Source: Marsupella aquatica
Taxonomy: Eukaryota; Plantae; Marchantiophyta
NCBI GenBank assembly: GCA_973895155.1
Contig: OZ316893.1
Location: 124,001 to 188,000, forward strand
DNA: 64,000 bases
Reading direction: 5' to 3'
Within the stretch, counting starts at the first letter, position 1, and every line of letters begins with the position of its first letter. This document shows positions 7,859 through 60,205 of the stretch, piece after piece. Position numbers and translations under genes: made by a program. The notes below the pieces were generated by a model. The model had not been told where the DNA came from and did not search any database. It saw only the letters and a program-made list of their open reading frames with translations.

Positions 7859-8033
7859 TGGTCTAGGGGAGAGTAATACTGCCAATGTATATGATCCCTC
7901 AGCGGGAAGTTCTGGACAGAAACCAAACCGGTTTCCCTCTCTAACTAGAGCAAACCAGAACTAAGCCGTAGCCTAATACATAGGAATGAGGAAGAGCATA
8001 TATCAGTAATTACAATGAATGTTTAAGAAAACT

Positions 8034-11000: not shown

Positions 11001-11306
11001 ATCAATAACGCTCCATTGATGACCATTTGAATCCAACACACCGAGTGAAATCAGATTCTTACGCATGCCAGGTACATACCTGACTCCGGACACTGTGCGC
11101 ACAGCGCCATCAAACATTTGAATCTTCACAGACCCAATTCCCTCAATTTGACAGGAGTGATCATTTCCCATCAGAACTGAACCGTTTGAAACAGAGTAAG
11201 AACTGAAAAACTCACGAATGTAACAAATATGAAAAGAGCAAGCACAATCAAGAATCCACACATCATCTGCTCTCCTAGATGACGTGCACAGGGCATACCC
11301 CCGGCT
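8034..11306 (-). pseudogene. pol: Copia Pol (protease, GAG-pre-integrase, integrase, RT, RNase H) with an in-frame TAG at 10926-10928
   Basis: WILDCACSFH protease, LWHSRLGH, HSDVWGP/SDNGGEY/GVAER integrase, KARLVAKG and YVDDML RT, and DSDY/EAEY/CDSQSA RNase H. NLYVL*GNT matches the usual LYxLQG. Confidence 0.93.
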
Positions 11307-12341: not shown

Positions 12342-13033
12342 ATGAGAAAGTCACAAAAAATGTTGTTTTTCACAACTTCTCAAAAAACTCGAAACTCAAC
12401 ACCGCCGCGTAGCCCACAAAGCTAGGAGTCCAATACTGAAAACCAAAATCAAAATCAAAATTTGACGGAAAAGTTATTCAAATTTCGGTCGAGGTGGGTA
12501 AAACCTTGGGAAACTCCCCCGTTTTGACCACCTCAGGGAATAACTGAAATACCAAGTACAACCCGTTGTCGGAATTGCGATGTGATTGGTGCGCTGCATT
12601 GCCAACTTCAATGGCTACGACCTCACTTGTCAACAACGAATGTTGATCAATTGCACTTGGTGCCGTCACCAAGTCCAACAAGGTAATTGATTTTGCTTAG
12701 CCTTCCTCTTTGCATCAAAGAGCCAATCCCGGACTCAAAAACAATCGTCTTGCCTCAATCTCTCCGTTGAGTCAAAACACTTGACGCTTCTCCCTCCGAG
12801 TCGATTGCCAACTTTCTTCACAAAATCCAGAACGACGAAAACTTAGATCTCTCTGCACCACGAGCTCCGTTCAACGATTTCTTCACACCGTTAGAAAGCT
12901 CTTGCCCTGATCTATCCGTTGAGCCCATAAACTCCAAGTTCCATGCGATGGAACTCTGGAAAATCCACCAACACTCAACGCTGGAAAAACCGTCATGAAA
13001 TCCCGTCACGAACACACGTCACCTCCCAAGCAT

Positions 13034-13045
13034 GCTCTGATACCA
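13034..13045 (-). promoter_or_regulatory. Primer binding site complementary to initiator tRNA-Met
   Basis: The minus strand reads TGGTATCAGAGC, 2 nt inside the 5' LTR boundary. Confidence 0.95.
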
Positions 13046-13047
13046 AT

Positions 13048-13468
13048 TGTTGAGCATAGACGACGATCGCAACGGCAAGCCCATGAACCATCCAACGCAC
13101 AATAGTCGACACAAGAGATACGTGGTTCACCTCCTTGAGGCTACGTCCACGGGAACACACAAGAGAGCTTTACTGAACTCTAAGCCCGTCGGCTATACCG
13201 AGTCTCCACAGTGTAAGCTCTCCCTATCTCTCAAGTGGCTCCATAACAATGAGCCTTGGTTCTACCTCTCCAAGCACACATGCCTCTTATGATATAGTGT
13301 GCAACTTAGTTGTACCTAACCACATAGTTGTACCTAATCACGTAGTTGTACCTAACCACATAGTTGTACCTAATCACGTAGTTGTACCTAACCACGTAGT
13401 TGTACCAACCCACGTTGTTGTACCAACCACGTCATACCTAACCTAGACGTAAGAGTAAATACCCAACA
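13048..13468 (-). repeat. 5' LTR of the copia element
   Basis: Identical by eye to 7422-7842 and followed on the minus strand by the PBS. Confidence 0.97.
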
Positions 13469-20819: not shown

Positions 20820-21330
20820 GCTTCTAACTTCCGGATATTAATTGTACAATAAAATAAAATAATATTAATAACCTATTTGGGGCATTAATTGTGTTCATCT
20901 TCATTCTCTTATAGTAGAGTTGCCAAAATCTTATGACTTTTAAGACCATATATTTTTGCATAGACAAGCGACAGCAGTTTGGGTACATAGTACCTTCAAG
21001 AATGTAATCCATGCATACATCCTTATCTGCTAATTGTTTGCATGGTTGTGAAACAAATATTAAGGTCACAAAATACAATAAAGTGGGGTGAAAGCTTCAA
21101 GTTTTATCAGATGTGAGTTCACTCGGCGTCACTCCCTAATCAATCAATTTGGCCCCAGAGTCAAGAGAACCGCAAACAAGTTGTTGAAGACAAAGGGATT
21201 CTTTTCCATGATGTAACACTCTCTTGAACTCAATCAATTCTAGATAACTCTTGGTTTTTCAAGAATAATTGGAATATGTAGTCAATCATGTTTGAAACAT
21301 GGTTTTCATCCGCAAAATAACACAACCACC
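20820..21330 (-). repeat. Dispersed repeat related to 38430-38965 and 48405-48570
   Basis: Shares GGGGCCAAATTGA...ACTTGAAGCTTTCAC with the 38.5-kb copy and ATGGATTACATTCTTGAAGGTA..ATGTACCCA with both copies. Confidence 0.7.
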
Positions 21331-23569: not shown

Positions 23570-23931
23570 AAGTTTGATATACCCCGAAAACCCGTTAATC
23601 CCCTCATCCCCTCATCCCCACCCTTCTAATTGCATTCCCAATACACCTTGGCTCACCCATCTGTGCCTCCACCCTCCACACATCTTTTTCTCTTCTCCCC
23701 ATCTTTTTCTTACCTTGACATCTTTATCTCATCATGGCAATTTTTTCTCACCCTCAAAATCTTTACTGTCCTCGACATATTTTTCTCTCCTCGAGACCTT
23801 TTCTCACCTTCACATCTTTTTTTCATCTTGAAATGTAAAGTTTTTCTCATATTGCCATCTTTGTCTCACATCGACATCTTTTCTCTCCTTGACATCTTTC
23901 GTGCAACGCACGGGCATAGGCATAGGGCAAG
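23570..23931 (+). mobile_element. Non-autonomous Helitron 3' portion
   Basis: GACATCTTT repeats as at 1-300, a GTGCAACGCAC hairpin, and a degenerate CAAG|T end. Confidence 0.55.
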
Positions 23932-26900: not shown

Positions 26901-29580
26901 AAAACACCTCCGACACCTGACTCAATAATGCCTCAATCGTTCCAGGATGATGGCATCCACTCGTCGGTGTCCGCATTATCGCTATCCAGAAATTCTTCCC
27001 TTCCCCATTCCTTCAGACCTCTCTCTGAGCTTCGCTTCTTCTTCAAAGGTCGGTAATACTTTGCCAAATGCTCCTTCTTCTCACGACGCCTCATCTTTCG
27101 ACATTCCTCCCGGCGGTTCCTCTTTCGTTGCTCCTCCGCAACCTTTGAAGGCTTCTTCTATTTCTCTTTCTTTTCCTCCCCCACCTCATCCGCAACAGGT
27201 GCCTGGTCCTTGGTCTTGTCATGAATAACCACAGTTTGGTTGCTAAGAGGAGGAATGCTTGCCATTTTTGCAGCATCTCCAGAGTTGAAACTATCGGACG
27301 GATCCCAGCACACAAAGAAGTTGGACAGCTGCTCATTCACATCAACTGCCTGTAATGCACTATTACTCTTCTCCGCATGTAAAGCCGAAGAGCTCCTCAC
27401 TCGTCTCCCAGGTGCCATTATGAAAGTTAAGCAAAATCACAACGATCCAAAATGGTTGCCAAGCGCTCAAGGAGGAGATGAAAAGCGCATTGATCAAAAG
27501 GAGCCTTTAAACCTTTAACCTCCGGCATGCAGCAAACTGAGCTCATCCCAGCCAAATCCCGTGACCCGGCGCCAAACCATCATCGTGACCACAACGGACA
27601 CGAGCCAAAGATCGACATGCGTGCCATTGCGGTCAATTTCACATTGAGTACAAGTACACACCTTTCACTTTCAGAAGGTTGAAAATGATGGGTCTAGTGC
27701 TAGGTAGTTCGGCCTACAACCTTAAATCATTTCTTTAGCTAACGGGGAAAGCAAAAGGCGTCAACAAACGATGGGACCCACCCTGTCAGTTCTCTATCGG
27801 GGTTTATTTTTTACCCGTGCACGAAGGTAACTCTCAAATCCAATCAGAGCGACGCCAGTACATATGCTAAGAAAGTGGTGAACAATAATATTTCTAAAAG
27901 CTAACCGGGGTCGAGGAAGTGATTGGAACCAACCACCTCCAAGCATATCCCCACCTCTACTTGAGTTGAGGCTCGCCCATTGTTCTACCATAGTCCTGAA
28001 CCCGACAATTAGGAAATACCGTGCATCACCAAAAATCTTCCACGCGAGTCTCGCGTCGAGCAAGGTTTCTTAGTTACAGCTTTTTATGAACCTGTCCCCC
28101 TAACTTGCCGGAATTCGTAAGCTGTCCCCCAAACAATTTTATTTACTTTCCTGCCCCCCCCATTCCGTAAACGAAGTAGTATGTTCTCATCCTGGTGTTC
28201 CGGAGGCGAGGTGGCAAGGCGTCATTGGCCCGTACATTTCCCTAGAGTATTCCTTCCCCCGTCCCTGTCACGGCCCGTTTTTGTGATGCAGGGACATGCT
28301 TTAGACCCGGGACGAACCTGTGCTCCCCCTACGCCCTAGCCCTGACCTCTGCTGCCCCTACGCCTTCACGAACCCCCACCCTCAGCGGACCCTGACCCCC
28401 GGCCTTTGCCCCCTTAGACCTCCGCTGCCCCTGCCCTCGGACCAAATATTGACCTCTCACGCTCAGAAGGGTGTCCGACAAAGATCTTTTGCCTCTCTTC
28501 TTGATCTTCTTGAAGCTCTCATATGTTCCAGATTATATGCATCGCCCCATTGCCTTTGCTTGGGTTGGTATCCACATTCAGACCATCCTTACGATACCCA
28601 ATTCCATGCTTCGTAATCCATCAAGTAAATGGATTCTTGTACTCCCCTGGCCAGTAAGAAAACTTGCAGTCAACAGCACACTTCATTGACTGCTGCTTGA
28701 TGATGACTGGTGTTCGGCTGCTGTTTGGCAAACTGCAGTGCGCAAACCCTAAATGTTTTGGTTCCACTTATGTGGTCACGTTCGACTTCAATCCTACCTA
28801 AAACTTACAAATGCTTCGAACATGGCTGCTACACTCATTTACTTGCCATTAGCAGACTGTAATTTCATCATGGAGCGCCCTCGCGACCCACTGTGGCTTG
28901 TTGATTCCGATGAGTTTGTCACTGAAAATTTGTTTTTGGGGCTGTGGAATTACCCAAGCTGGCCTGAAAGAGTGAAGGTGCCATTCGAGAAGTACTTTGG
29001 CAAAGTGTCACACTTCCAGAAGACGTGGCCCTCTGTGCAAGTCCTACCGATTTTGTGGGATGACTTTTTCCAATTTGCAGAGGAAGTGTTGGTCTCGACA
29101 TCGTCTCTCCACAAGGAGTTGTTGGAATGAATTGTTCTATCGTGAACACTAGAGAAGTAGGCAACATGTCAAATGAATTCATACCAATTCTGGAATAAGA
29201 AGAATCCATGCATAATGAAATGACACAGAGAGTAACACCAACAATAAACATATATCACATTCTAGTGACAGAGAGCAATTCATTGTCATAAGCAAATATA
29301 GGTTGTTGTGACAAGAAAAGAAGGTGTACATCAATTATTATATAAAAATCTGTTACATTTTTCCCTATGACGGATGTACCAAAGGGCACAAAACAAATAT
29401 GCACACATAACACACACTAGCCATCCAAATCATAAAACTTCAAAGACCGAACGAGGTCCTCTATAGCTTCTCCAACAGGTTTTGCTGGTTTTTTGTCTGT
29501 TTTCTTTGGTGTGCTACCCGATGTGCTGCCGTGGCTTCCTATAGGGGAATGTGGAGTGACTCGCTCCCTGTGCTTCACAT

Positions 29581-30110
29581 TCACTGTGGAGAAACAAAGC
29601 ATGCCTGGGTGGGAGGGAGATGCACTACAGGACGTTCGTCAAAGAATGTCAAATGCTGGACTTTGATTTGAAAATCATAAACAGACAGCCAAATCTTAAC
29701 CCTCGGTGACTCCTGCATAATCGAATGCAAGAACTCGATCTGGGCATGCTCTGTGCACATCGAAAAGTTTATTGCATCACAATCTAGGAGAATTTCTGCA
29801 ACATCCCAGACTTGAGCAGTGACAGGTTTCACGTCCCCATGAATTGCGTCAACGATGCGTATACCAAATCTGAAAGCATACCTCCCTGGAAGCATGTGGT
29901 CACACTTGGGTCCGAATTCAAGGGATTTCGCACACATTCGGCCTGTTTTCAGTCTGTAAGGACAAGCTAAATAGACGAATCTATGAGGATGGGGATTAGT
30001 CGCCACATAGTTCACTGCCCACACTAGAGAAGGGGAGAAAACTTCATTGGCTCCTGCGGCCCTTCTTTCCTCCACTTCACCTAGTGTAGTCCATGAAACC
30101 ATTCTCAAAC
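29581..30110 (-). pseudogene. RPA1 (RPA70) C-terminal OB-fold/Zn-like fragment
   Basis: FVYLACP...CAK...C...YAFRFGIRIVD...VWDVAEILL follows the Rep_fac-A_C pattern (YxACP..CxK..C..YRxxxxIxD..AExLLG). Confidence 0.6.
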
Positions 30111-31099
30111 TCTGCAATGCAGTAGCACTACTCAGTTGAAACACGGCGCACAAATATACCAGAATGAGCAAGTAATCGAAATGCATTCCAACAACACAAG
30201 CTTCAGAAAACAGACTTCACCTGGCACTGAATGTATGGCTCCTTGCAGCCCCGCTGAATTTCTGGATTGCGTAAGCTCAATCGCCTGCACAAGCTCAATC
30301 GCCTGCCAATTCCAGAATCGATGCACCCACGTCTCCCAGCTAGGTCCACACCAAAGCCCTGTCAGTGCTCTCGAAGTTAGCAATCGAGTGAACCAAGTTC
30401 CAAGTCGAAGATGCAGATCGGGAGTACTGAAAATCCGAGCATGACACGCCCGCATCAGTCATAGTTTGAACGATCTTCAAAAAGGCATACAGTGTTCGCG
30501 CTTCAACTTGGGCCATCCCTCCCGTTAGCTACAGTTCACGGGTTACGTCTTAGGGTCACGACACAAAATTACGGGAGCCGGTTTTGGCCTCCCATAACCC
30601 TTATGGAGTAGTCCGTAACTTCCAAGTTATGGACCGGTGTTAATGGGCCCCACCTCTACTCTGAGACGCCCTAATGAATACGATTTGTCGACCCCGTTTA
30701 TTTTCTACGGTGAGTCTCGTGCACATGTTTTGACATATTTCTCTTTGTCCTAACGGAGTTCGATCCGTTATTTTCATTTTGACACGCTTCGGATTGAAAT
30801 TCCAATGGTGGCCAAACTTGAGAATATTTTGTCGACTATGAATTCGTGGTCTTTTGAATTGCAACCAATTAAAGGTAACTATCGTTTGATTGTCAATGGA
30901 GTTAAAACAGAGAATGGATGAAGAAACTTTGTGAGTTTTGGCACTATCGGGGACTGTACAAGATTTGCGTCCCCAAAGGAATTTCAAGCAGATGGTTGGT
31001 TGATCCACTTCATGGGTTCTGCTCAGCACATTGTCTGGAACATTACAAATAAGAACACGAATGTTGTCTAATGCGGTTTCTTTGATCCTTTGATGGATA

Positions 31100-32430
31100 G
31101 ATTAGATGGCTGTCACCTGATCGGGTCTTTAAGGCAGATGAAATTATTCTGGGTCTTGGACGTGTCTCCTATGTCATGAAGCAGTCGGAATATGTTATCT
31201 CTCGGACACGAGAGGTGGATCACATAATGCGGATGAAGATCCCAGACGATGACTAGAGGAGAAAGATGACTATTTCTCCGAATGTTGTGTTCATGAAACT
31301 TTTCAATGAGAGACAAAGGTGGAGGAATGGATTCAAGGGCATCCAGTAATCCATGACTGGATGCGCCCAAAGAAGAAAGAAGCTGGTGGAAAGGAGATGA
31401 TTAGGATTGTCGATGATCATGAGGAGGATGACGAGCCCGCATCTGGAGAGAAAAAGTCCCATGAAACAATTTATGTATATGAGTCAAGAAACGAGGATGA
31501 TGGAGAGAAGGGAACTGTCCAAGAAGAGAGCAAGAAGACTATTCAGAATCAGGCGGAGTCAGAGATAGAGTCAGAGTCGACTGGTTCAAAGGGTGGGGTT
31601 CAGCCAACCGACGATGATGTTGAGAGCGGGGAAATTCAGCAGAATGAGGTCATCCCCCCCACCAAAGCCTACAAAACAGAAGCGATACACAAAGACTTCA
31701 AACTAAGCCAGGCAGTAGCCGCAATCATGGGGATTTGGGATGTAACAACCATGGATCCAGAGCCGGCCTTTGAAGCCAAGGACTCTTCCCCCGTTGACAT
31801 GACCCCGGAGCAGGCCGGTTTCTCACCACCATAGTTGACCAGACCTTGGCAAGCCTATCCGGGTGACAAAGGCAAGAAGTGCAGGGCCAAGTTCACCGTC
31901 AGGAGGAACAGGCAATTCCCGGAAAGTTTCTCATCGACTTGCTGGGAAATGTCGCCAGGAATGTCTGCCTCGAGATGGGTTTGCTCTTGACAATGAAAAA
32001 GGATGGTATCCTTGAGGGACATCTTCACTGCCACCGAAGCCGAGTACCAGGCTTGCTAATATCAGTGGGAGGATACGGAAGACCGACGCTACACTGAGAC
32101 TACCGAGGCGATCAAAGCACATGTAAAAGAGGCCATCGACAAAATAAATGAGTATGTGGCTTGCTCATTCATCACGACCATGGACAAGGACGATCATTGT
32201 CGTCCTCTCGAGCCCGAGGTTGATCGCCTTAGGCGAGACGTCAACGAGCAAGGCCAGCTAGCAGACATGCTGACGAGTAACATCCACGACTTGGAGGACG
32301 CCTCTGAGGAGGAGGTCACCAGATCCAGATCCGGGTCCTACAAGAGGACACTGATCGTCTGCGGGGTCATCCGGACTGGCGGTCCGGATCTAGTTCGGGG
32401 TGGGACTAGCAAGCATGCCAAGCATTAGGG
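31100..32430 (+). pseudogene. Decayed acidic/coiled-coil ORF, probably TE-derived
   Basis: Acidic low-complexity segment (31319-31834) and a heptad-like segment EVDRLRRDVNEQGQLADML. It has several breaks and no recognisable catalytic motif. Confidence 0.3.
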
Positions 32431-33119
32431 GCGGGATTCACGGAAGATGGAAGCACCAGCGTCCGGGCGACACTGGCTAAGATTAGGTTGGGATTACACC
32501 GCTGGCTTAGCTCAGGCTGCAGGTATTAGTGTAGGGCGTCTCAAACCCCCTCAAACCCCTACACGTTGTCAGACTCCTTCGGGTCACCCGGATGCCTCTG
32601 GTCCCTGCCCGCCCGATATTGAACACCGGTACCCAAAATCGGACTATCAAGTCCTCCCATTTTAATTATGCCTCGCTTTGTTCGCAGTTACAATCATTTC
32701 CGGGACGCCAGGAGATTGGTACCTATAAGCTTTTCTAACATCAGTTGCTATTTTCAAGGTTCACACACAATGCGATAATCAGATAGTTCAACATTTGGTT
32801 ACGCAGCTTGTTTTCCAACCTTGTAATTAGAATGAAGAGAATTTTGCAAGTGTTTGTATTTCTGTGAAAGCTCGTGATGAGGAACGGAATGAGGAGAGCA
32901 AACCCGACCACCTACCTAACCCGGGCAGCCCACGCCAGTGAAATACCGGGTGCCAAACTGTATTACTAAAAACATAAGTTTCAGTCAGTAGCCCTAGTGC
33001 GTAGTGGTAGACTTAGTAGTAGTAGCGGTAGTAGTAGGGAGGCAAAGTTTTAGCCGGGGCACAAGCACGAACGGTCGTGGGTTTAGCATGGGTTATGACT
33101 ACCCCGCCCACTAAACCCT

Positions 33120-36100
33120 TTACCCACCCCATCTCGGAATATATACATCCTGAACAGCTGCTCCGTCTGGCCTTGTGTGCGAGTGGTGTCTCGGGCGATT
33201 GCCTCCACTTCGGCTTGGCGTAGTAGCCGCGCCTTCCAGGCACACGTCGCAGGCCAAGCCGCCGGGGAGCAGGGCACAAACCTGTGCCTTCCCGTCCATC
33301 TCAAGGTGAAGGTTGTATCACCGACAAATGGTATTTTTCGCGATCCATTGGTGCGCAATCTTCATGCTCTCCTGGTTGACTCCTTCGATTTGCACGGATG
33401 GCGCGGACAACGCCCAGGCACGATAGTCCTTGTGTGAAACCACCACGCACACTCTGGGCCGGCCGTCCCCTCCACATCTGCCCGACTCTTGGTGGTAGTC
33501 TTCCAACCCATAAAAGCCTCCCCGATGCACGACCAAGCGAATGCTGGGATAGTTATATCCGCAGGAGATCACTGAGGTTGCCACCATGACTTTAGGCGTG
33601 CCCGCCTCCCAACTTTGTAGCTTGCTAAGTCTATCTGCCTTCACGATGTCGGAGGTTAAGAAGCAGCTTTGGACATGATGTAGTCGTAGAGTTTGATCCA
33701 AATCCACAACTTCATTCTTCGTCATAGTGTATACCAGGGCTCTGTCCTCTGTGCCGGCGGCGGCCATCCAATCATGTAGAAGTTCCGCGATTTTCAAATC
33801 CAGCCGGGCCTCATCGTCCACAACTCTGTACTCGAGGTTGGGTCGTGTTGTACAGGACCGAATCACCTTCCATGGACTTCCCAACTTCCACCATAACGCC
33901 GCTTCCTTGCGGGGCGGTAGAGAGGCCGTCAATCCAATCAGCTGACAATGAAGTCGGGAAAGCCAGAGAAGCTGTGCCATGGATTGACGGTAGGGACACA
34001 ACACCTGATGCACCTCGTCTATGACGATTGAATGCAATTTGCCGGCGCAAATGAGTTGTCTGGCCCAACTTTGGAAACTCTCTTGGATGGCAATCTCGAC
34101 AGGGACAAACACGAGCGGAGGTGCCTCTGCCACAGGGATACAGCTCACCCTGAACTCCGAACAATCAAAACCTGCAGCCCTGCACTCCGCCAGCTGAGTG
34201 TGGATCAACACATACAGAGGAACTATGACAACCACCGTCTTTCCGCTACTCCGAGCGGCTGCCATGAAAACGGCCGATTTCCCGGAACCCGTGGGTAGGA
34301 TGGCTACAAAATTCTGCATGTTGTCCACCGCCGTGGCGACTGCAATTGCCTGCTCACGCGTCTTCCAATCCCTATGACCAAGGCTGAAAAGTGCAATCCG
34401 TGCTTCATACATCGCAGCAGGGTCCAGGCCCTCCAGTTCATTGCCATGATCGGTGTTTGATCCATCATCACATCTGTGCAGGATCCGGATTCGCTTTGAG
34501 GGCGGAGCGAACTCAACTTCCACACCTGGGTGAGGCCGGACCACTTCTGTGCCTGGCCACAGCTCAGGCTCAGGCTCGGCCTCGGCCTTGGCCTCCTGGT
34601 GTCTCCTAAGGTCTGTGGGCAGCCGCAGTAAATGGTGAAGCTTCTTTGCGACAAACGTAAAGTTCCTCCACTCATGTCGATCAACAACTCTTAAATCCTG
34701 GCTATTCTGTGCATAGTTATGGCCAGCGGTGGACACCGAATGGCCTGCAGATGCATCCAGCCGCTCATTAGCCAGTGATATCTGCAGCTGGAACCGAATG
34801 GGCTCGGAAAAGAACGTTATAATGTGCCGATGAGGCCTAATCCCAAACGGGGCCTTAAATCATTTCAGGAACTCCCTCTCCACACCTGCACTCACATGCC
34901 ATGTTGAACGCCTTTTTCCGGTTTCAACAAACCAACAATCCGCGTACACCGCTGCTTTCTCTCGACCCCACAATTGACTCGCAACGAACACCTGCACAGG
35001 CCTCACCACGGTAAGGTACTGGAGGAAGGCTAGCCTCAGACATAGGGGTAAGAACCGAACAATGTGCTTCGAGCGTCTTCGACCACACGTTTTGTTATAT
35101 GTTTGGTGTATCACCAAGGTCCCTTCTGCCCACAGGAACGTCCGTTGGTTGGTTGTCGTGTTGCGGATCAAGAAACTGCCGTACTCTGCTGCCCTAGCTG
35201 GCTGACCCGATGTAAAATGCAGCAGCCAAGTGAGCCGGTCGTTCAATCTATCGGCGGCGGCCAGCCATTCGCGTAGGGCCTTCTTGTTCCACATCTGGAT
35301 GCCGTTCTCGTCGTAGCGATGGACAAAATGTGATGATCTCATGTCATCGGAGAACAGATGCTGGTGCAAATCGTGCCTGTGCTCGTGGAACGGGTTTCTT
35401 TCTTCGGTGAGGAACGAGTATCCGTTCCTATCTTTGTTGAGCTCGTCCACAATTACGCTGCCCCCGGGTACCAACAGTCGCTCCAACCAATCCGTGTCCA
35501 GACCCAGAAGAACTTGTTCCCGCATGAGGACGGTGCATTCACTAATCACCGCCATCACCATTTCTCTATAGCCGTCCAGTGTGATTGGGTAACCGTTCAC
35601 TTCGCATTCTGTGTAACCGGGCTTTGATGCAACGAGATCCGGTCTTTTCGGCTTTTCACCGACAAGCGAGCAGATAAGGGTCTGCCAAGAAGAAATGTAG
35701 CCGAATGGTGTCTCTATTAGCCTGGGTTTATCCTCCACGTACGCCAGAATTGCTCTCGCATCTTCGACATCCAGGTCATCCGCTGCCGCTCGATTCCAAA
35801 GAGTGCGACATAACTCCATTTTGATTGCCGCTCGGCACCAGAATTTCATCATTGACAGCATTGGGGTGACATCTGTGGATTCCTTCCATGCATAACCAGT
35901 GGAGAGCGCGCACGCTTTGAGCGAGGACAGGATCAAAAACTGCAAAAAAAAATTGTCCGTCAATTTCCGGGCTACCACCTTCGTCGGATGTGGGGGGGTC
36001 CACAAACCGAGCAACAGGTCGTGTAGGACAGTGTAGTCAAAGTGGTCCGGGTCTATGGGACCCTCTGGAAGGGACTCCAACTGGATCTTTAGGGCTTGGA

Positions 36101-37396
36101 GAAGGACCTTCAAGCGGTCGGGAGCCTTCACAACGAGGAGCACATGGGAGCCTGGAGGATCACATGCAGAAAGCAATAAAGTGAACAGGAAATTTGTCAT
36201 GACCGAGCAATACTTCTCTATCGTGGACTCCTGGAGGAACTCGGTGAATCCCTGTGGAGAGTCAGGACTCACAACCAATGTCCTCACTCTGAAATCCGCC
36301 TTGACCAAGACTTTTTGCACAAGCGTGGCATACGAGAGCACAACATCCGGGACCCGTGCATATGGGGAACCTTCCCGGCGAGCCAAACGCATGGGACCAC
36401 TGATATCGTTGTACGTTGAATTCTCTGGTATGAGTCCTGCCGCAACCTTCACCCATCCAGTGGCTCGCAACCACGCGGATAGCTCTCGAGGGGGAGGATC
36501 GTTCTGTGCGGGGAGCGTCCGCTCCATCTCAAGAATTGCCTTGGACAGCGCGGACTTCAGGCTTTGGTTGCTACCTCGGGCTCGGTCGGGTGGACATCGG
36601 ACTGCAAAGTACTTCTTCCCGACACCTTGAACAAGACATTGAACACTACTACTGCAACACATGGTCATATCGGTAACTTGGGGATGCACTCGTATTGTGT
36701 GATTATGCATAGTCTTCTTACTTGCGCTGTGGTAGGTAGTGCAAAAGGGGCACGAGTAGCCTCTGCGGACAACGATACCGGGGACTGGGGAGACTAATCC
36801 CCGAATACAATGATCCCACACTGCATTGGGGGGGTTAATTGCATCCCCATGATGGCCGTAGACAGCTGTCGCTCATCTTGTCGGCTCCATAAGCTTCTTC
36901 CCCCATTCCTACGGAGGGGCGCGAAATCCTTCCAGACATGCCTGCAAACCGTCCCCACGCTGGAACCGTCCAGGATAACATTGCAAGTAACGCACAAGAG
37001 CAATGCCATGCCCTCGTACTTCACCACAGACAAATCTGCTCGACTTAACACATCTGGGGTGTCCACAAATTCTGAGATTGTCGCCACCCGGGGACTTTCA
37101 TTACTGGGAACCGAATCACCCGAATCGCCTGCTGGGACCGATGCATGACTACGGGTTGTCCCTTGGATGTGTTCTCTGGCATAATGGTTCTGCAAGCGGT
37201 CCGGTCGACGGAAGCGAGACAAGCAAGAACGGTGAGGGCACGGCCAATCACGAGCTACGGATATGCGGACTGAAGATCTCATGCCATCAGCCTCGACGAC
37301 ACTGCAAATCGACTGATGAACTACTCTCCTATGAGCGGCTCTTTGAGAAACAGTAACAAACTCCATTCCAGGACACCCATCGCACCGGAACGTCAT
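33120..37396 (-). pseudogene. C2H2 - DUF3505-like - tyrosine-recombinase-like - RecQ helicase fusion (fungal telomere-linked-helicase-like)
   Basis: The ORFs 36794-37396, 34860-36821 and 33318-34736 plus a tail to 33120 join through one frameshift (near the G7 run at ~36830) and two in-frame TGAs. Helicase motifs: LPTGSGKS, VIVPL, DEVH, LTAS, RPNL, VATS, QESGR, and a Zn tail CR*...DG...C...CDVC. YR-like residues: GQPAR, YNKT, HRH, AGHS...Y. Confidence 0.85.
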
Positions 37397-37529
37397 CGTA
37401 ATGTCTGCTAGCGAATGAACGGGCTGGGTAGTTATATGTGGCCAAAAATATCATTCAGCTCCAATCGAGCATGATGATATAATTGCACCCACAACCACTT
37501 TTTGTCGGATGAGACTGAGGGGGGGCTCC

Positions 37530-37718
37530 AGCTTGTCATCCGAGAGCAATGGCAGACGCCAACCATTCCCTTTACACCTCGACTAGCTTGTCATCCGAGA
37601 GCTATGCCAGATGACCCTTTATACCCCGACTAGCTTGTCATCCGAGAGCTACGACAGACCCAACGATAATTCCCTTCGTACCCCCGACTAGCTTGTCATC
37701 CGGGAGCTATGGCAGACT
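37530..37718. repeat. Four spaced copies of AGCTTGTCATCCGRGAGC upstream of the helicase gene
   Basis: Copies start at 37530, 37585, 37632 and 37690 (periods 55, 47, 58). Confidence 0.9.
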
Positions 37719-40473
37719 GAACCATCCCCACTACTATACCCAAAAAACCCAAAAACATTTGTTACCCCTAATTTTGTTGGTCATCTCTGCCCCCAATTCC
37801 TCTGTATCCTTTCACTTGTGCCCTCACGGTGTACAAGCTTTACTAACTCAAGACAATAATAGGCCCGCGAGGTAGCTTTCGATCGGCGCCCATTGGTTTA
37901 TTTTAGTTAACATGTCCTGCCCGGCCAAGTGAGACACTTCACAACCACGCCTCGGACCTGGTGATGGCAAATGCAGCTTGAGCGTGACATTACATAACTG
38001 TGCCTGGCAGCTGGCGGCAGGACTAATCAATGCAACCTATCATTAATTACCCTTGTCAGAGTCATTCGCCCTTATTTGGAAAGACGGTCCATCGCAATTC
38101 AATGGGCCGACGGCTGTACTGGTGAGTGTCATCATAATAATAAGGACCCTAAACCGGCCCCCACCTTTGTTAGTGCATACAACATTATTGTATCGCTACC
38201 GTAGGGGCAGTATTGTCAACAACAACAACAACAACAATGCTACTACTGTTGCAAGAAATTCCTTTTTGCAAACTCTCAAATACCAGGCCCATGACCGAAG
38301 TCCGAAGGGTAGTAGTAGTAGATGAAATGTTAAAGTAAACTGTTGAAATATTCTACGCTCGATTACGCGGATGAAAGTCATGTTTCAGATATGACTGATG
38401 ACATTTTTCAAGTATTGATGAATTAAAAACCAGGAGTTATCTTGAAGTGAATGATACATCATGATAAAGAATTCATATAATATCTCTCTGCATCAAAAAC
38501 ATGTTGTAAACTCTTCCTCTAACAACTTGTTTTGTGGTTCTCTCAGCGCCGGGGCCAAATTGACTAATTAGAGAGTGACACCAAGTTCGGAACGCACATC
38601 TGGTACAACTTGAAGCTTTCACACAAATTTATTGTCCTCTTTGATCTTCCAATTTTATATCTGACATGGTAATAATTCACAACCATGTAAACAATTAATT
38701 AAAACCATGTAACGTTAGAAATACTGGGCAGCGGGCAGTCACGTACTGGATTAATAAAGGCTAATAGCATTGATTAGCCTCGGTCTTGCCTTTCGTTCTT
38801 AATAACAATTAGCACATAATAGGATGTCATCATGGATTACATTCTTGAAGGTATCATGTACCCAAACTACCCTTGCCTATGCAAAAACTAAAACCTGCTT
38901 GGAGGGACAGAGTATAGGCCTTGTATTTTTGTGAGGAAAGTATGCAAAGAAAAGAGCTTGGAATCCCGGGATCCACTTGCCATGATATTGAGATAATGAT
39001 GAGAATTTTCTTTTACTAGTATGTATTAACAAATTGAATCTTCAAACTAAGTTGCCCAAGATCAAATTACAGATAGTTATAACTAATGGCTCAATCCAAG
39101 CCATCATTTTTCTTATGGCGCATACTCTTGTCATTGTAGATGAGCTTTGATGTCATTCTTATAAATTTATTTTAATGCACATAAATTTAATACAAATTTA
39201 CAACACTACTCTGAATGTACTTTGCCTATATCATTTACGTGAAAGAATTGAGTTTGGACCCACATACTAGTTAAGCACCTTGGAAAGAGTGTCACAGGTG
39301 ACCCATCTCTCACCCATAGGAAAAAAGAAATTAAAAAAGAGAAAGAAGAAAAAAGAAGAAAAAACAAACACATTACTTGCATGATACTTGCAAAGTAATG
39401 CAAGTCTCATGCACAGTGATTTAGGAACACTGGGCACATCTCAAATATGATTTTCTTGCCATTTTAGATTCTAGCGAGCGCTACCAAGTGTAGGACACTG
39501 GGAATATGAAAAAATGGCACACTGGGCACATGTCAAACATGATTTGCTTCCTTACAGTAATCATTTTACTATAGAGTAGTACTCGTGTAATTTAGTTGAG
39601 CCTCTACGACAGACCCTCTCGGTCACGGGCCTGGTTGATGACTTGACGATGTCCTCGTCCATGATTGATGAGGATCCCTCACGATTCAATGGGCTGGCGC
39701 CTGTACTGCATAGGGTTCATTAACGACGTATTGCGCTAGTCGGCACCCACGGACCCACCATAACTAGTGGAATAGTGGATGCGTGATTCGGTGATTGTAC
39801 ACCTACCGTCGCGGAGAGGAGAACAACAACTTACTGTGAACCTTTCAAGACCTACTCTGAAATAGATGAATGTACAACACAATAATCCAGTAATTTTCCC
39901 TCTAAAAGACTAGAATTATTGGAGGTATATGCTTAATAAACCCCCTTTGGAATGTTTCTTGCTTAATCAACACCCTATGTTCAAATCTGCCCCAACCGAC
40001 CCCCTATGTTCAAATCTGCCCCAATCGACCCCCCAAAGTATGTTTGTTACACAATCAACACCCTTTGATTTTTTATGGTTCATGACATGATGCTGTGTAT
40101 TGCAATTGCATTGTACCTGAACCTGTCCGTGGGTGCAAGCGACTTGACCAAACCGTCAAATGCTTCATTTAGAGTCGATCTCCCCACGACGGGACCATCT
40201 AGGATTTCAAGAAATGATGTGAAGACAAAATGTGTTATGTCTTCAGATGTTCATTATTGAATTAGCCTCATATAACTTGGTCCAAATGTTCATTGTTTCA
40301 CATTCTGTCATGATGACTTCTGTTTGTCATGACGTTTTGGGGGAATCTATTGTATTGAGGGTTATTGGGAAGCTCAGTCTCTTTTTGTTAGAGTTTGCAT
40401 GCAATCTAGATGACTGACATTGTAGTGGTGTGAGGTACAATTAGGGATATCAATGTTGGAGATTTTGATGTCA

Positions 40474-41307: not shown

Positions 41308-43686
41308 CTACACCGCATCAGCATCGAATCCAACAACAGCGGTGCCTGACGCAAAGGTATCGAACGGAGGGGAAGCGAACGAGTTTTCGACCAAGCATTT
41401 CTCCACCAAGCCACGGACGGCAGAATAGTGAGCAGCAAACGGCAAGGAACAAATCTGCCTCAACCGGTTCAGATCTGGCAGCTCATTTTCTGTGAACATC
41501 CGATGTACTCGAGCAACTTCCATCCAGATTCGGATCAAATCAATGCGTGAACAGGAATGATAATGATAAGAGGGGTAAGCTGTGCGAAATTTATGTTCGT
41601 CCTTCCAAGTCTCGACAAAAGGGCTAAGGGACTCCATAGTGTTCCTGTAGTGCTCGCAGTGTGCTAGCCTGCATTGAGCAGCAATAGTACCCCATATGGT
41701 ATGCTTCTCTGTAGCAGACAGCTGAGGTGAAACCGAATGCACAGGGCCAGTAGGAATGACGACAGTAGCCTGGGCATTGGTCTGCTCCAAGAATTCAACA
41801 ATGAATTGCAGCGAGTACAAAGGCAAGTTGCCAAAGTAGGCAAAGGCAGCCTCAACCTTTACCACGGACAGATCACCGTACAGCAACATAAAAGCGAGTA
41901 GAGGTCGATATTGTTTACACAATGTCCAGTATCTCTCCAGATCGCAATGCTCGAGGGTGACCGAACAACCGGGAACAATGTTGAGCACCACAGAAATCTC
42001 TAAAACACGATGGTAATAGTAGCGCCAAAACTCCAAGATTGGCATCTCAAATCGGGAAGCTTCTTGCCTGAACAAAGTGAACTTCCGCCTAAAATTCTCA
42101 TCCTCATCCTCCTTCTTCAATGACACACTCGCGGCCGGAAGCTTCGAAAGCTCAGCAGCAGGTGCTAGGGACGCACAGACAGAGGTAGTAGGTGATGGTA
42201 CGGAAGGTGGGCCTGCAGACATTTTCGCTGTAGACTCACATTGTGATCGGGATGAAGTAGCAGCAATCATAGCAGCAAAAAGAAAATCCAACTTCCGCTT
42301 CTTACCTAGTAGCACATCTGAATCTCCTCCCGGATCCGTACGCATCAAGTCCTTGTGCAGGTCACTCATGGCACCATAATAAACTTGAACTGTAGATGCA
42401 AAGCTGGTAGCGCATCTAAGGACTCTATCGGCTACATTGTGATCGAGCTGCATGAGTGCTTCATCAAACAACTTTGCTTTCATGAGGTCAATCGCCGGAA
42501 CATCCAACAGAGGTCGCAGCTTATCTAGAGCCCGATCTAGAGTAAAAGAAACATCAGAACTCCTGGCAGTAGCACATCATAATTTCTCTTGGAGATCGAG
42601 GTTCTCCGCGGATAGAGCTTCCACACGAATCTGGAATTTCTCTTGGAGATCAAATTTCTCGGCAGTCAGAGTTCCCACACGTATCAGAGCATCCAATCTG
42701 TCCTTATCTATCTTGGTAAACTCTTCGACGGAAATGAAAGAAAATTCCTGAAACTTGCTGAGCAATTGATCCGGTGGACAGCCGATGAAGCTAGTTAATT
42801 CAGACAGAATTTTCGACTGGGTCGTAGAGATTTTAGACAGCGCTTCACTTTCCTTTAGAAACACGGCCCATCTGGGATTTTCCTGGTTCACCTCGACTTT
42901 CGCCTCGTCCTCCGATTCACCGGGCTTGTCTTCGCTTGATTCGCCTTCCGATTCGGGCGTGGTATCCGCATCGGGATCCCTCTCTCCATTCTCCAGGTAG
43001 GCAAGATGAAGCTCCCACTCAATCAACTCGGGTGCTGTCAAACATTTCTTGTGCGCATACACATGGGAAAGGTAAACAGCAATCCAAGTGAAGGAACCAG
43101 ACCTCATTGACAACATTTGCGTCTTGATCACGGCGCAGAGCACATTCGCCCAGTTGATCACCTTCAGTCCCTTCCAGGAAGCGATGATGGTGCTGGCCAG
43201 AGCTACGGGTGCTCTATTCTGACATTCCGGATTTAAAATAGGAACCAGAAATTCCAGCAAAGGTAGGAGGTTCAATTTATCAGCACATTGTTCCAGATTC
43301 CAGCCGATACGTACATTTTTCTTTCCTGCGAAGTAAGGTCCAGTCAAATCAATGCATCTCAACATACATTCTCCTTTCGACTTCAAATCATAGACCTCAG
43401 CGATGAGATTCTCAGTCCACTGATCAGGGTCTCCATGAATTGTTGTACCTTTGGATTCTCTTCCCATGCCTCGCATCCACACATCCTCCACGATAGCGCT
43501 CGACTTCATCCCCCATGGCACACGAATCAAATTCACAAGGCCCATCGTGGTTAAATTTGCTCACAACCGATCCATGGCTTCCTCTGCATGAGGTATGCTG
43601 GCATGGATGATTCGGCATGACGGTGGTGGTTCTTCTCTCATCTTCTTACTCGGAGCAACAACAGTTACCTTTTTGTTTCTATCCAT
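41308..43686 (-). pseudogene. TE-associated ORF (mobile-domain-like N-terminus, acidic linker, helical C-terminus) with two in-frame TGAs
   Basis: One frame runs from ATG 43686 through TGA 43561-63 and TGA 42577-79 to the stop at 41308. It contains IHGDPDQWTENLIAEVY, LLEFLVPILNP and INWA. Confidence 0.6.
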
Positions 43687-47120: not shown

Positions 47121-47419
47121 GATAGATTGTAGATAGATAGATGGGTTGATTGATAATGATAGATTGATATCTCTTGCCTACTGTAGTGATTAAGTGATAT
47201 CTCTCTCACTTGTCTGGTCGGTGTGCACATTTGAGCGCTTCCAGGAGGAAGGGAATCCTGTCAGGGTCCATGTGTGCCAAATTGCCAATCAACACGATGA
47301 AAGGCATACGGTGTCAGTTATGGTTTATACGACCTCCCAGGTGTCTCAGAGCATACGTGGGTCGACATACGATCTACCACTACTTGATCACGGATACCTT
47401 TTACGTATAGTCTCACTCA

Positions 47420-47623
47420 TCGTTTCTCTCAACGACCTCTTGGGCAACACGACATCTTTTCTCTCCACAACCTCTTGGGCAACACGACATCTTTTCTCTC
47501 CATGACCTCCTAGGCAACACTACATCTTTTTTCTCCATGACCTCTTGGCTGACACTACATTTTTTCTCAATGACATCTTGGCCGACAAGACTTCTTTTGT
47601 GCAACGCATAGGTATTGAGCTAT
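47420..47623 (+). mobile_element. Helitron family B 3' fragment with the 35-bp minisatellite
   Basis: It is the reverse complement of 1243-1450, and its end has degenerated to GGTATTGAG-CTAT. Confidence 0.75.
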
Positions 47624-50600
47624 TTCTTCTATAATACTCAATCCCGCCCTTTTGGGCGACGTCGTCCTTTTACAAAAACAATTTTGGCGGATACATATAT
47701 GGCCATCGGATCATGTCATCGCATTTTGATGATAAAAGAATAAAAGAATGAGGTGTATATTACCTTGCTTCCTCTCACCTCACCTCTAGCTCAGTGTGTG
47801 CTTCCTCAAGGATAGTACAATCAAGACAGTCAAGTAAGGCTCTGGGACAGTACAGTTTGATTGAATGTACAGATTGGATAATACCAGTACTAACAGTATA
47901 GTTTAAATAATACAAGACAGGACCAGAAAAATACCCTTTTCTGGGAGAGATTTAGTACAAAATGGTCGACACCAGTAGTACTCCCATACCCATAATTCAC
48001 TTGGAATGCACAACAATAGCCAGGCCCCATGACCGAAGGGTGAATCATTATTATTTATTACGCTGCCCCTAAGGTCTTCCCACTCATCCCATCCCTCCTG
48101 TGGGACTCGGTCGGTGGGTACCTTCCGGAGGACGCCGTTTACGACGTCTATTAGGAAGGTCAGGAGTTCCCATTGCAGAAAAGGACTATAAAATAGATAA
48201 ATGTAGGTAAAAATTTCAAACCACCTAAAGAGAGTTAGTACTACAGAAATTTAGGACAAAGACCGAAATCAATGCCAAGCACCACCCTCTACATAATAAG
48301 AAAAATAATATAAGTTGAACCCAAAATACAGGGACAACTGTGAGGCCCCTCACTAACAGGCCAGGCCATTTTATACTCTCTTTCTCATACATTTCGAGGT
48401 TTGGGCCCTCTCTATTAGCAGATAATAGGATCTCCTCATGGATTACCTTCTTGAAGGTACTATGTACCCAGAATGCCCTTGCCTTTGCATAAACTGTACC
48501 TTGTTGAGGGAGAGAGTATAAGGTATTTATGTGAAGAAAGTATGCGGAGAAAAGAGCTTGGAAGCATTTTGGCGCCCCCCCCTCCTCTCACATCACAAAT
48601 CTAAGTTGAAAGTTCAGCCAATAATTACTCAAATAAAATTATAGATTTATGTTTAAAAATGGGTGGGAATTTTAGCAAAGCGGTAAAGGAAGAACTTTTA
48701 TATGTTCTGATTTTGATTTCATAAATATTTTATATGAAGCCATAATATATCCTACATATCCTATCCTACATCCCTACATACATACATACATTACATTACA
48801 TTACTACTATAATACCCTATCCCGCCAAAAGTGGAAGTCGTCCATGCACAAAATCACTTTTGGAGGGAAGATTCCGTGACCATTGGATTTATAACCTCTT
48901 TTATCCAAGCCTTTGATTAGTCAAAAAAACAATATCTCTAACCCAAACAAAGACAAAGTAGTTTGTTATACACAAAGATTCTCTAAGGAGGGGGCATGAT
49001 GGCATACGCTGTATGTGAATGCCATGTGTTGCCATTATTGGAAATTTGGAAGGGTCTCGGTAACTGCACATCAAAATATGACATATACTATGTACAACCC
49101 CTGCATACCTGCATACCATGATAATACTAGTTTTTTTTTCTTTCAATCAATGAATGCAGCCACATTTTGATGTGTGATTACCAGCAGGGTTATTGGAATG
49201 GGGCACTTGGGACACCATTATGAGGGGATATGGACTAGGAGAGTGGGAGACATAAAGGGTCAAAATAGGGAGGGGAAATAATAATACAACCATGGGTGAA
49301 GGGATGGATGGTATCATACCCTCCCATAAGTACAAGATACGGGACGAGACAAAGTAGAGCAAAGGAAGGTGGAAATAAAGATAAAGATGATGTGGATTTT
49401 TCCCTGAATTTTCAGAATTACAAGAGTCTCTAACTAGACCCATAAATAATAATAATAATAATAATAATAAGGCAATAAGTAGAGTGAGGTAACTTCTACA
49501 AATTTCTTTTGTTATGCATTTTTATTTCAATTTGTCTTACCAAGGTGCATCCGTTGTATAGTTTAGATTTTGAATTTATTCTGGCACCCCTCTAATTTTT
49601 TTAAATCTTTACTATATTTAATTTCTAGCCCTATGTTATTAACAAATCTAAGGTAGACCCACATACTGGTTCATTTTTGTAAGCCCACGATTATCCATAA
49701 ATGCCAGGATACCATATTGTAGTGGTTGCTGGAGTGCCGTCATATGCAATTACCGTCCAATTCCGTCCGTTCGTTGAATGAACCATAGATTTAGCCCTAA
49801 GTTCTCACACTAAGCCACTTACGGAGTACATAAGTGCTGCAAATCCCCTGTGGCCCTGCCTGCATTCTAGACTGCGTTTCGCTTCCAAGATCGAGGTAGC
49901 CAGGCGGCACGACAGCTCGGGAGACGAACACATCGGGATCGAGGCGCCTTAGGTGGGGAGGTCGAGTGTAGGGTGCTTACGATTGCTTTCTTCCTTCTTT
50001 TGCTTCTTCGTTCCTTGCTTTAGTCCTTCTTTTGCAGACGGCAATGGAGAAGCTAGCCTCATCGGGCAAACTGTTTCTTATTTTGTGATGAGGGCTGTTT
50101 TGAGAGGATGGAGTTTGCTACCATGCCTGTTTGCTACCCGAAGTTCTCGATGTTACTGGAGTTGAAGTCTTTCTCATTCACACCTTTTTAACATTCGTTT
50201 TCCTGCACACGATGAACAGCCACACGGAAGAGGTGATTTGCAGAAAATGGCCGCCAGGTTGTCTTCATCGATGTTGGAGGTTCACTATGTCAGCGAGTAC
50301 AATACATTCAAGGAGACCGAAATGTCATTGCGCAAGAGAGTGGCGCCTGCATTCCGACCTTCATGGGAAAGGTACGATTAATCACCCAGTTTAGTTTAAA
50401 GTTTCACCTCTCCGTAACGCGCGTGCCGGTGATAGCACATCAGGTAATATACTGTTAATATACTGGGGTGCACTCACTGATTTTCATAGAATAACTGTGT
50501 TTATCTTGGTATGGATTGATGTCGTCCCCCGGCTATCTACGCGCATTCTATGTTTTTCATTTCCATTTCTCTGTGTTTGTGCAGGCTTCCAGTCACCAAT

Positions 50601-54253: not shown

Positions 54254-54844
54254 TCACCCCCCCGCCACAGACCTACAGCCCCAATGGCTCCACTCGGTAC
54301 TCATCCGTGACTTGCAAAGATTCTCTGCAAAGTTGGCTTCATGAGTAAAAAACACTACACCGAACCTCGAGCCGGACATGATCCTTGATATTGAGGGTTG
54401 CAGAACGGCCGACCGCATAAACACCACATCTCCAGGTTGTAATCCAAATTGTAAACCAAGTTGTGGCACTTCCAAACGTCCACCCTCAAAATCACCAAAC
54501 GCTACATTTGCAACCCAGCCATCCACAACGTCATTTGCATCTCTGTGCGGACCAGGAGCGAGTTGTGTATTTTTTGCCATCCCTAAGAAACAATTTCGGG
54601 AAGTGGAATGCATATAACTGGCTGCTCCACGAGCGAAAGCATCAAATACTGCCTTATATGTTTCGTACATGTCACTGTCGATGCATTCAAAGAGCGTTCC
54701 GATCGCCTGTGTCACCGGCGCGAACTTGTTTATGAACTCTAGGATCCAATTCATGAACTCTAGGATCCAATTCAACTTCTTCCCGGATCCAATGATGTGC
54801 TGCGACAAAACCCCTGGGACATGTTTGTGACCGGTGCCATGCAA
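54254..54844 (-). pseudogene. TET/JBP-like 2OG-Fe(II) dioxygenase domain, probably inactive
   Basis: PHRDAND (HxD), FGDFEGGRLEVPQLG, QPGDVVFMRS and GSRFGVVFFTH. The expected distal His is CCC (Pro) at 54395-54397. Confidence 0.7.
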
Positions 54845-55249
54845 AAATGCCAGAGGGTGTACACCCGGGCCAAGGGGAATAGCTTCTCATGTTTAACGAT
54901 CTCCTTTGGCTCTTGTGATTCTCGTTACCTCTCAAAGCATCTTAAAAGTACTCATCGTGAACATGCATCCAGCACGAGGCCCATTTGCACATTCACCTAA
55001 TTGTCTTGTTTAGGGAGTTATTACCAATCTTCTACTGTGCGCTATTGACGCAAAAATACCAATGCAATGAAAGATGGTGGGGAAGAAGTGGAAAAACGCT
55101 TCACAAAAGGACGTTACAAATAATTGTGATGCAGGCCATGGGGTCGTTCTGCTGCAACGGCCGGAGGCTCGGGCTGCGAAGAAGGGCCATGCCCAATTGT
55201 CAATGCTCTACAAGGATCCGTCACACCGCCGGTATAACAGTGGGGATTC

Positions 55250-55975: not shown

Positions 55976-56935
55976 TTCATTGAAATGCTAGGCTCATTGA
56001 AAAACCTCCATCAAAAAGCTTCTCGAGCAATTATAAGCATGAAAGGTTTTATCAAGGGATGAGATGGAAATTTGAGATCAATCTCGTCGATGGTTTCCAG
56101 ATAGACATATATAGGGTATATAGGTAGGGACACTATTTGGCTTTCTTGTCTCATTAAATTGAAATGTATTTTTATGTTAATCAGGCCTAGTCCATGCTTT
56201 AGTCATGTACTGTTTGGAATTTAGTCACTTAAATTTTTTTCATTTCCTAGTTTTTATCAGGTCCCCTATATTTTACTTATCATTTTGAGGGGCATATTCC
56301 TTACTTGCATGAGAAGGTTCGACCCTTCAACCAAGCAACTAGTGTTCTATTTACTGATGAGCGCACCTTATATGCCCATTGGATATAAAATTTACATTGA
56401 TCATGGTTTATTCATCAATAGGTATCACGAAAATAGAGAGCCCGAATTTGAGCAGAAAACTAGAAAAGCACACAGTTCAAGCCCTTCTCTTTGAATCATA
56501 AAGTGCCTAAAGTATTGTACCTTTCTCACTTTTGAAGAGTTGTGTAGTTTTTTCATTAACTTTGTGATGCCTAGACAGGAATCACTCGGCCGGTTAAGTG
56601 GGTAAAGCAGGAAGGCACCCTAGGAACACCTTAGTATAGTGACAAAACAAGGAAAATATAAACAATTAGGGGCAACCATGGAACCCGGGCCGAGGCCGGA
56701 GGTAAGGCTAAGGGTGAAAACCCGATTAGGGTTAGGGCGCGTTAAGCGTCGGCGGCTAGGAAGGATCAACGGGAAGAAGGACCGGCAAAGGAGAGGGGTA
56801 AGGAGCGCTTGCAGGAGATAGTGGCTCATTTGCGAGCACGAACTAGGCAGACGACTACGGGAGGCCAACTACTGTCAGCTGCTTAGGCAAGCACTCGGGG
56901 AGAGAGTAGATACCGACGATCAACCTAAGGAGGGT

Positions 56936-59900: not shown

Positions 59901-60205
59901 TAAGTGGGAAGGGGAAGGGACCAGCTGCCGAGCCACCAACGAAGAAGAAGCAGAAACCTTCAGGGTCAAGGAGTAATACGACTTCACAGGCCGTGGTGAT
60001 CAAGGAGGTAGACCCAGCACCGACCCCAGACAGGGTCACGGCTAAGGATCCAACTACCCTAGGGGAAGGGGAGGCCGAAGCCGAGGGAGTGGCTGAAGCC
60101 GAAGCCGTGGGAGTGGCTGAGGCCGAAGCCGTGGGTATTGCCGAGGCCGGTGTCGAGGCTGAAGCCGAAGGTGGACTCGGTCAAGGGCAGGTAATCTGTC
60201 AGTAG
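56936..60205 (+). pseudogene. ~1,090-codon TE-associated ORF (Transposase_32/mobile-domain-like plus long coiled coil) with two in-frame stops
   Basis: Three listed ORFs share one frame, separated by TGA 58412-14 and TAG 59525-27. It contains GLEAFVRLPW..LLEFV..IYGK.FYLTPKVIAEVFGLP and long heptad repeats. Confidence 0.65.

Follow-up and report, generated by a model that had tools for sequence, protein, structure and literature searches.

A liverwort RecQ helicase gene, probably of the telomere-linked helicase family, with a predicted tyrosine recombinase-fold domain

Telomere-linked helicases (TLHs) of fungi combine C2H2 motifs, a "TLH domain" without explained function that is about 250 residues long and precedes the helicase, and a RecQ helicase (10.1101/2024.02.27.582403). 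Subtelomeric helicases of Fusarium bring together OrsD/DUF3505, DEAD and Helicase_C domains (10.1101/2023.02.05.527183). In Botrytis, one strain carries 14 TLH copies and two others carry none; the genes lie up to 63 kb from chromosome ends and are flanked by a Helitron-like element (10.1101/2022.03.07.483234). The TLH start of M. oryzae lies 181 bp past the end of a compound repeat array, at which seven subtelomeres turn to unique DNA, several of them within a CCTAACC motif (PMC1635262). Here, we report an analysis of a gene with a similar architecture from the liverwort Marsupella aquatica (assembly GCA_973895155.1), encoded on the minus strand between positions 37396 and about 33120 of a 64,000-nucleotide stretch of contig OZ316893.1 (positions 124,001 to 188,000; hereafter, the window, to which all coordinates refer).

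C2H2 motifs, a pre-helicase domain and RecQ are common to this gene and the TLHs of fungi and Monosiga (M. oryzae TLH1, S. pombe tlh1/2, U. maydis, F. oxysporum, B. cinerea). The OrsD/DUF3505, DEAD and Helicase_C set and the presence of many copies are likewise seen in both, and a repeat block lies just 5' of the ATG as in M. oryzae, a match by position. Because this layout matches that of the fungal TLHs, as the first-pass annotation of the sequence had noticed, the window gene is probably a member of the TLH family. The differences are that the host is a land plant, that the window contains no telomere, and that the "TLH domain", which is given no function in the available text of the papers, is represented in the window gene by a conserved domain with a predicted recombinase fold. 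Equated by position and architecture, the "TLH domain" and the recombinase-fold domain are probably the same. At the level of the family, the evidence presented below gives good support for a tyrosine active site hidden in TLH-type helicases, as it does for the presence of such a gene in a liverwort.

The putative active site is located in the middle part of the protein, for which no Pfam match was detected. A scan of all 1.84 billion representatives with this segment (34620-35750) yielded 1,479 relatives with E values no higher than 0.001; word-indexed homolog searches were insensitive and returned two matches or none each. Residues were counted in a local alignment of the best 150 of the 1,479 relatives together with one additional protein (P0004), over the rows spanning each site. 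The first-pass annotation had pointed out an ordered set of R, K, R, H and Y that resembled the catalytic residues of tyrosine recombinases. All five were located at the positions it named and in the recombinase order, and they are kept, respectively, in 147 of 151, 147 of 149, 121 of 131, 116 of 128 and 116 of 126 of these rows. The complete set is found in 109 of 126 rows, among relatives that are 22-50% identical, and the 17 rows that do not have it are mostly fragments or contain gaps. Together with E189 and R203, these are the seven best-kept of 358 columns, and the spacing between H and Y is 8-13. Sequence profiles of the domain retrieved no PDB chain, nor did any family of Pfam or NCBIfam fit them, and standard profiles of recombinase families matched none of 48 members.

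The AlphaFold2 model of the middle domain, built from 108 alignment rows, has a predicted local distance difference test (pLDDT) score of 92.7 and a predicted template modeling score of 0.89. In a wide structural alignment against 48,161 PDB representatives, XerA ranked first (Z 10.3, root-mean-square deviation 3.0, 162 residues), and ranks 1-22 were occupied by XerA, XerH, XerD, Cre, phage and integron integrases, topoisomerase IB (TopIB), Ndc10, Flp and lambda Int. The TopIB chains had Z of 6.0-7.6, compared to 4.7 for the first plainly unrelated row and 3.8 for the protelomerase TelA. The first 17 Foldseek rows listed, namely Cre, Tre, XerH and XerA, are in agreement with this ranking, all being non-significant. 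The recombinase-type fold proposed in the first-pass annotation is supported. An Atlas search ranked unnamed eukaryotic clusters first; the nearest named clusters, Integrase_2, Phage_integrase, DUF3504 and NDC10_II, scored 0.78-0.83 and are leads only. Because of the predicted fold and the residue set taken together, there is strong evidence that the middle domain is a tyrosine breaking-rejoining domain; the model and the residues are compatible with a recombinase, a topoisomerase or a resolvase. Among viral structures, the best whole-length match of the model was an uncharacterized 620-residue protein of Feldmannia species virus (B5LWN9; probability 0.99, template modeling score 0.45, E 0.03), a possible viral relative of the domain.

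A RecQ-like helicase follows the tyrosine, 95-384 residues downstream, in all 57 aligned relatives with at least 250 residues beyond it. Trees constructed separately for the recombinase-fold and RecQ domains of 49 proteins have 23 of 46 splits in common, compared to no more than 2 in 200 label shuffles, and 18 of 19 and 15 of 16 strongly supported splits agree between the two trees. Given this congruence, sequence comparison indicates that the two domains are inherited as a unit, passed down as one gene. The window helicase scores 358, 213 and 209 bits against family members versus at most 57 bits against solved cellular RecQ proteins. A 930-amino acid (aa) protein from JGI/IMG (P0008) contains the fingers, OrsD and the recombinase-fold domain and then ends, without a helicase; its cluster has a second member of equal length, and a helicase-less or split form is possible.

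The gene is read in three open reading frame (ORF) pieces. The first, ORF1, encodes 200 aa from the ATG, and ORF2 (36872-34860) and ORF3 (34859-33318) share a frame that, with the tail running to the stop near 33120, spans 1,250 codons and is interrupted by two TGA. An intact relative of 1,654 aa (P0003, from Logan) joins these pieces in tblastn, with identities of 35% (177 columns) in ORF1 and 44% (1,258 columns) in the remaining gene; the frame changes within a run of seven C near 36830. Pfam identified DEAD (2e-13), Helicase_C (2e-12) and, weakly, C2H2, and published TLH C2H2 patterns gave three matches across ORF1 and ORF2. OrsD, which we take to be DUF3505 under a new name, was weak and below the cut-off in the window gene (E 0.0015-0.003), with E down to 2e-12 in long relatives, 9 of the 13 scanned being matched. 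The first-pass annotation had joined the ORFs into one gene with C2H2 fingers, a DUF3505-like region and a full RecQ core with a zinc tail. Its single gene and order of parts stand; the full core does not, the motif VI arginine (R in 45 of 46 relatives) having become G. A second conserved arginine, kept in 40 of 48 relatives, is S. The alignment to the window stops at residue 1465 of P0003, leaving the window gene about 190 aa shorter, and the last 190 residues of P0003 have no counterpart anywhere in the 64-kb window. The window tail after the zinc motif is 39 aa; among 29 measurable relatives, 18 have tails of at least 150 residues with two or more CxxC, and 8 have tails of 55 residues or fewer. 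Because of the frameshift, the two TGA stops and the two lost arginines, the window gene is a dead, decayed copy; with at least four lesions, the proposal of an autonomous gene is not supported for this copy.

Evidence on additional copies comes from contigs of four public read runs (two studies), which share 58-75% of the window words and were placed on 27000-39300; contig depth is not a copy number. No RNA run was among those listed, which has no bearing on expression. Near-identical contigs within the gene have depths close to those of the flanks in their own run (64 versus 54-74 in run X3; 26 versus 37 in run X1), in two studies. Divergent contigs were found at five places in the gene, with 16-31 differences per 201-316 letters (8-10% divergence); at one gene site, up to 12 contigs carry an alternative letter, and a loose contig end at 33241 is followed by letters that continue in frame. 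These observations point to several diverged sister copies in the host, as had been anticipated. Divergent contigs cover the whole 12.3 kb examined. Two zero-difference contigs, in two runs, stop at 33130, which may mark a sister-copy boundary or a single variant. The locus itself sits among repeats, in a repeat-rich window that includes a long terminal repeat (LTR) element.

In a midpoint-rooted FastTree tree of 143 rows, from which rows with less than 55% cover were excluded, the window sequence groups with P0005 and P0003 (support 0.99). P0005 and the nearby P0006 are proteins of the liverwort Calypogeia fissa, one of them from a 46.8 Mb contig; species names are known for 4 of the 22 proteins looked up, and the two named fungal proteins (Arthromyces and Ceratobasidium) are far from the window sequence. 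Because the nearest named relatives come from a liverwort, the earlier suggestion of acquisition from fungi, as a recent transfer, is unsupported.

Upstream of the ATG lies a block of four repeats (Table 1; repeats at 37513-37716), with cores bounded by TAGCT...AGCTA, that ends about 110-115 bp before the ATG; we infer that these are candidate binding sites for the zinc fingers or a recombination mark. A joint between read contigs, 37318-37996, was seen in three of the four runs, with a borderline short side of 30 letters; because of this joint, the repeated unit appears to extend about 600 bp or more upstream of the ATG. Its 5' end was not found and is placed between about 38025 and 38530, given that another dispersed repeat, which bounds the 5' side of the element, begins at 38531. 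Three pieces of this repeat are present in the window (20976-21176, 38531-38910 and 48414-48516), and 13 contigs of one run diverge from the window sequence at 38710. Two metagenome scans and one viral-contig pattern scan, aimed at the flanks of relatives, found none. A candidate 3' hairpin was rejected, being no better than shuffles (z -0.79), and telomere-like motifs near both gene ends are not special, given that the window contains 30 copies of TTTAGGG. The three TAAAGGG motifs on the minus strand of the window (33122, 37574 and 37621) all fall at the 3' stop or in the upstream repeats, perhaps by chance, the numbers being small.

On balance, we lean slightly toward the window locus being a defunct copy of a recombinase-helicase DNA element of the TLH type that spreads itself, because of the kept catalytic set, the predicted fold, the RecQ fusion rule, the sister copies, the repeat-rich decaying locus and the mobile-like character of fungal TLHs. 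The fingers, the OrsD-like domain, the recombinase-fold domain and RecQ are encoded in one frame and inherited as a unit. The R-K-R-H-Y set is predicted to form a 3'-phosphotyrosine active site as in Xer, Cre and TopIB. The fingers would bind the repeats that precede the ATG and direct the enzyme to the element's own end, where a nick or strand exchange would occur and RecQ would unwind or branch-migrate the joint; extension by the helicase could then copy or move the unit to new sites, in fungi often chromosome ends. The present copy is inactive. A broader proposal, which we hold tentatively and with somewhat less than even confidence, is that the TLHs, known since 1998 and including fission-yeast Tlh1/2, are transposases of an unrecognized, eukaryote-wide class of DNA elements that moves by means of one tyrosine-recombinase-RecQ fusion protein, with liverworts and mosses holding a long-standing lineage of their own.

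Several observations weigh against a self-spreading recombinase. The first-pass annotation had described a recombinase-plus-helicase transposon; the recombinase-type fold and its fusion to RecQ stand, and the transposon is a candidate reading: the read joints listed (15 of 30) revealed no ends of an element, no duplicated target, and neither an empty site nor the junction of a circle. Because the read runs share just 58-75% of the window words, some divergent contigs may be alleles or derive from other strains. The authors of the Botrytis study attribute TLH spread to chromosome-end exchange (10.1101/2022.03.07.483234). As for the fold, a Z of 10 exceeds the usual 7-8 of unmatched models only moderately, and no Foldseek match reached E 0.001 (the best had 0.12). 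The histidine of the HxxR motif, which had been expected, is absent: the column is variable (R 33, A 24, S 22 and N 14 of 132 rows), and the H preceding R in "RPHRH" is present in just 6 of 132 rows. Structure searches recognized no core-binding domain; the helical region 36542-35751 folds confidently (model pLDDT 87), and it and a 641-aa model returned Foldseek noise only and otherwise just generic helical look-alikes. With neither this histidine nor a recognized core-binding domain, a TopIB-like or resolvase-like enzyme would fit equally. A variable histidine in the active site of recombinases, one that Cre does not strictly need, has been reported (PMC10104507).

These features lend themselves to the main rival account, unlikely in our estimate, under which the protein is a chromosome-end maintenance enzyme, a TopIB-like nicking-closing or telomere-resolvase-like partner of RecQ, that is copied passively by end exchange, the window copy being a displaced pseudogene. 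Such an enzyme would be in keeping with the TopIB scores, the missing histidine and the location of fungal TLH copies at chromosome ends; one chemistry is common to recombinases, TopIB and telomere resolvases, which can switch products (PMC12270096), and ResT couples this chemistry with unwinding (PMC5388405). However, Xer and Cre outrank TopIB, with TelA at a Z of just 3.8; strain-to-strain presence and absence in one fungus and decay in the window speak against a needed host function; and no telomere array was found in the 64-kb window (33 kb downstream and 26 kb upstream of the gene). Passive cargo, that is, a gene that another element (Helitron-like, or the adjacent repeats) has picked up and amplified and whose recombinase domain no longer acts on its own DNA, appears improbable. 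Since the divergent contigs cover all 12.3 kb, the flanks are repeated too, and the Helitron-like element alongside Botrytis TLH genes (10.1101/2022.03.07.483234) would suit such a vehicle, but no Rep/Pif1 or DDE gene is present among the window ORFs scanned, the catalytic residues are strongly constrained across the family, and the failed 3' hairpin also counts against it. We assign a very low probability to mis-assembly of fungal or algal DNA into a plant contig: the gene family is best known from fungi, guanine-plus-cytosine content is 0.52-0.55 in the gene versus 0.39 just upstream, and no bridge between gene and flank with 31 letters on each side occurs among the contig pieces listed (32 of 2,944), yet the near-identical gene contigs match flank depths in two studies, and the nearest named relatives come from a liverwort, one of them on the contig of 46.8 Mb. 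The reading that we continue to favor is the self-spreading element of the TLH type.

Table 1. Features of the decayed helicase gene and its upstream region in the window.
Feature	Position	Strand	Evidence
ORF1, with two C2H2 fingers, a low-complexity linker and the first half of the OrsD/DUF3505-like domain	36794..37396	-	ORF, Pfam, tblastn, pattern match
Frameshift in seven-C run, real or assembly slip	36820..36840	-	tblastn, sequence
Second half of OrsD/DUF3505-like domain and C2H2 motif	36600..36800	-	Pfam, pattern match
Helical domain before catalytic domain; may have a core-binding role	35751..36542	-	predicted structure
Domain with predicted tyrosine-recombinase/topoisomerase-IB fold (probably the "TLH domain"); putative catalytic residues R 35195, K 35093, R 34829, H 34742, Y 34715	34620..35750	-	alignment, model
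Premature TGA within recombinase-fold domain	34860..34862	-	ORFs, tblastn
RecQ-type helicase core and Zn-binding motif; motif VI R to G (33470); premature TGA 33320-33318	33220..34400	-	Pfam, alignment
Short tail and stop; Cys-rich C-terminal part of nearest relatives (~190-240 aa) missing	33119..33220	-	tblastn
Four-repeat block, 47-58 bp spacing, core TAGCTCTCGGATGACAAGCTA and one inverted TCGGATGA core	37505..37716	-	repeat search
Upstream DNA, seemingly part of repeated unit	37717..38025	-	read-contig joint 37318-37996

The remainder of the window contains several other features. An ORF remnant at 54254-54886 (minus strand) encodes a Tet_JBP oxygenase domain (Pfam E 9.6e-9, slightly over the cut-off); TET/JBP genes are rare in land plants. 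The LTR retrotransposon at 7409-13464 (minus strand), presumably of the Copia type judging by the domain order in the translation, has LTRs that are 98% alike over 300 nt and contain an array of seven 18 bp units, and a polyprotein with two in-frame stops. Arrays of 35-bp units at 1268-1743 and 47418-47598 are in opposite orientations, 46 kb apart, and related 18-19 bp arrays are located at 27-273 and 23680-23899. Long, stop-broken and partly coiled-coil ORFs at 41308-43560 (minus strand) and 56822-60205 (plus strand) match no Pfam family above the cut-off and look like decayed retroelement accessory genes.

The presence of the gene in a liverwort extends the TLH-type family to land plants. 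The family itself is probably already known. Our literature searches found no work that joins "telomere-linked helicase" with "tyrosine recombinase" or describes such a fusion, although subscription journals, Repbase or preprint supplements may hold one; nor did they find work on plant copies, no search having been aimed directly at plant occurrence. Because standard profiles miss the recombinase-fold domain, annotation pipelines label such loci as RecQ genes. If true, the tyrosine active site would offer a one-residue handle on how, in fission yeast and crop-pathogenic fungi, TLH genes invade and homogenize chromosome ends, and the element would represent a third kind of eukaryotic recombinase-driven DNA element, beside Cryptons and Starships.

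Among previously described enzymes, the tyrosine recombinases (XerA/D/H, Cre, lambda Int and Flp) and TopIB share with the window gene the predicted catalytic fold and the R, K, R, H, Y order. Unlike these enzymes, the window gene has no HxxR histidine and no recognized core-binding domain, contains large insertions and is fused to fingers and RecQ, and its domain shows no sequence-level match in Pfam, NCBIfam or the PDB. Cryptons and Starships are similar in being eukaryotic and having a recombinase-fold enzyme and no reverse transcriptase, and the DUF3504 and NDC10_II clusters are weak structural look-alikes; DUF3435, DUF3504 and NDC10_II had no match in the 48 + 13 proteins scanned. A Crypton has a recombinase-only gene and no helicase, whereas in the window family RecQ is fused (57/57 long relatives) and no Crypton-type Pfam match was found. 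Starships differ in their DUF3435 captain, which is missing from the window gene and the relatives scanned, and the word "helicase" is absent from the available text of one Starship paper (PMC10104507). DIRS elements are set apart by the lack of a reverse transcriptase or RNase H Pfam match in the window gene or 13 long relatives, and Helitrons by the RecQ type of the window helicase and the lack of a Rep Pfam match in the same proteins. The earlier proposal that the gene is distinct from Cryptons, DIRS and Helitrons therefore holds; the gene is less separate from known families than proposed, being most likely a TLH family member. Academ-type RecQ-bearing transposons possess a DDE transposase and terminal inverted repeats. 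The likeness lies in a RecQ helicase carried within a transposon, both in Academ (PMC3627910) and in AcademH, a RecQ-bearing DNA transposon; the difference is that the window gene pairs RecQ with a predicted tyrosine-type domain in one protein.

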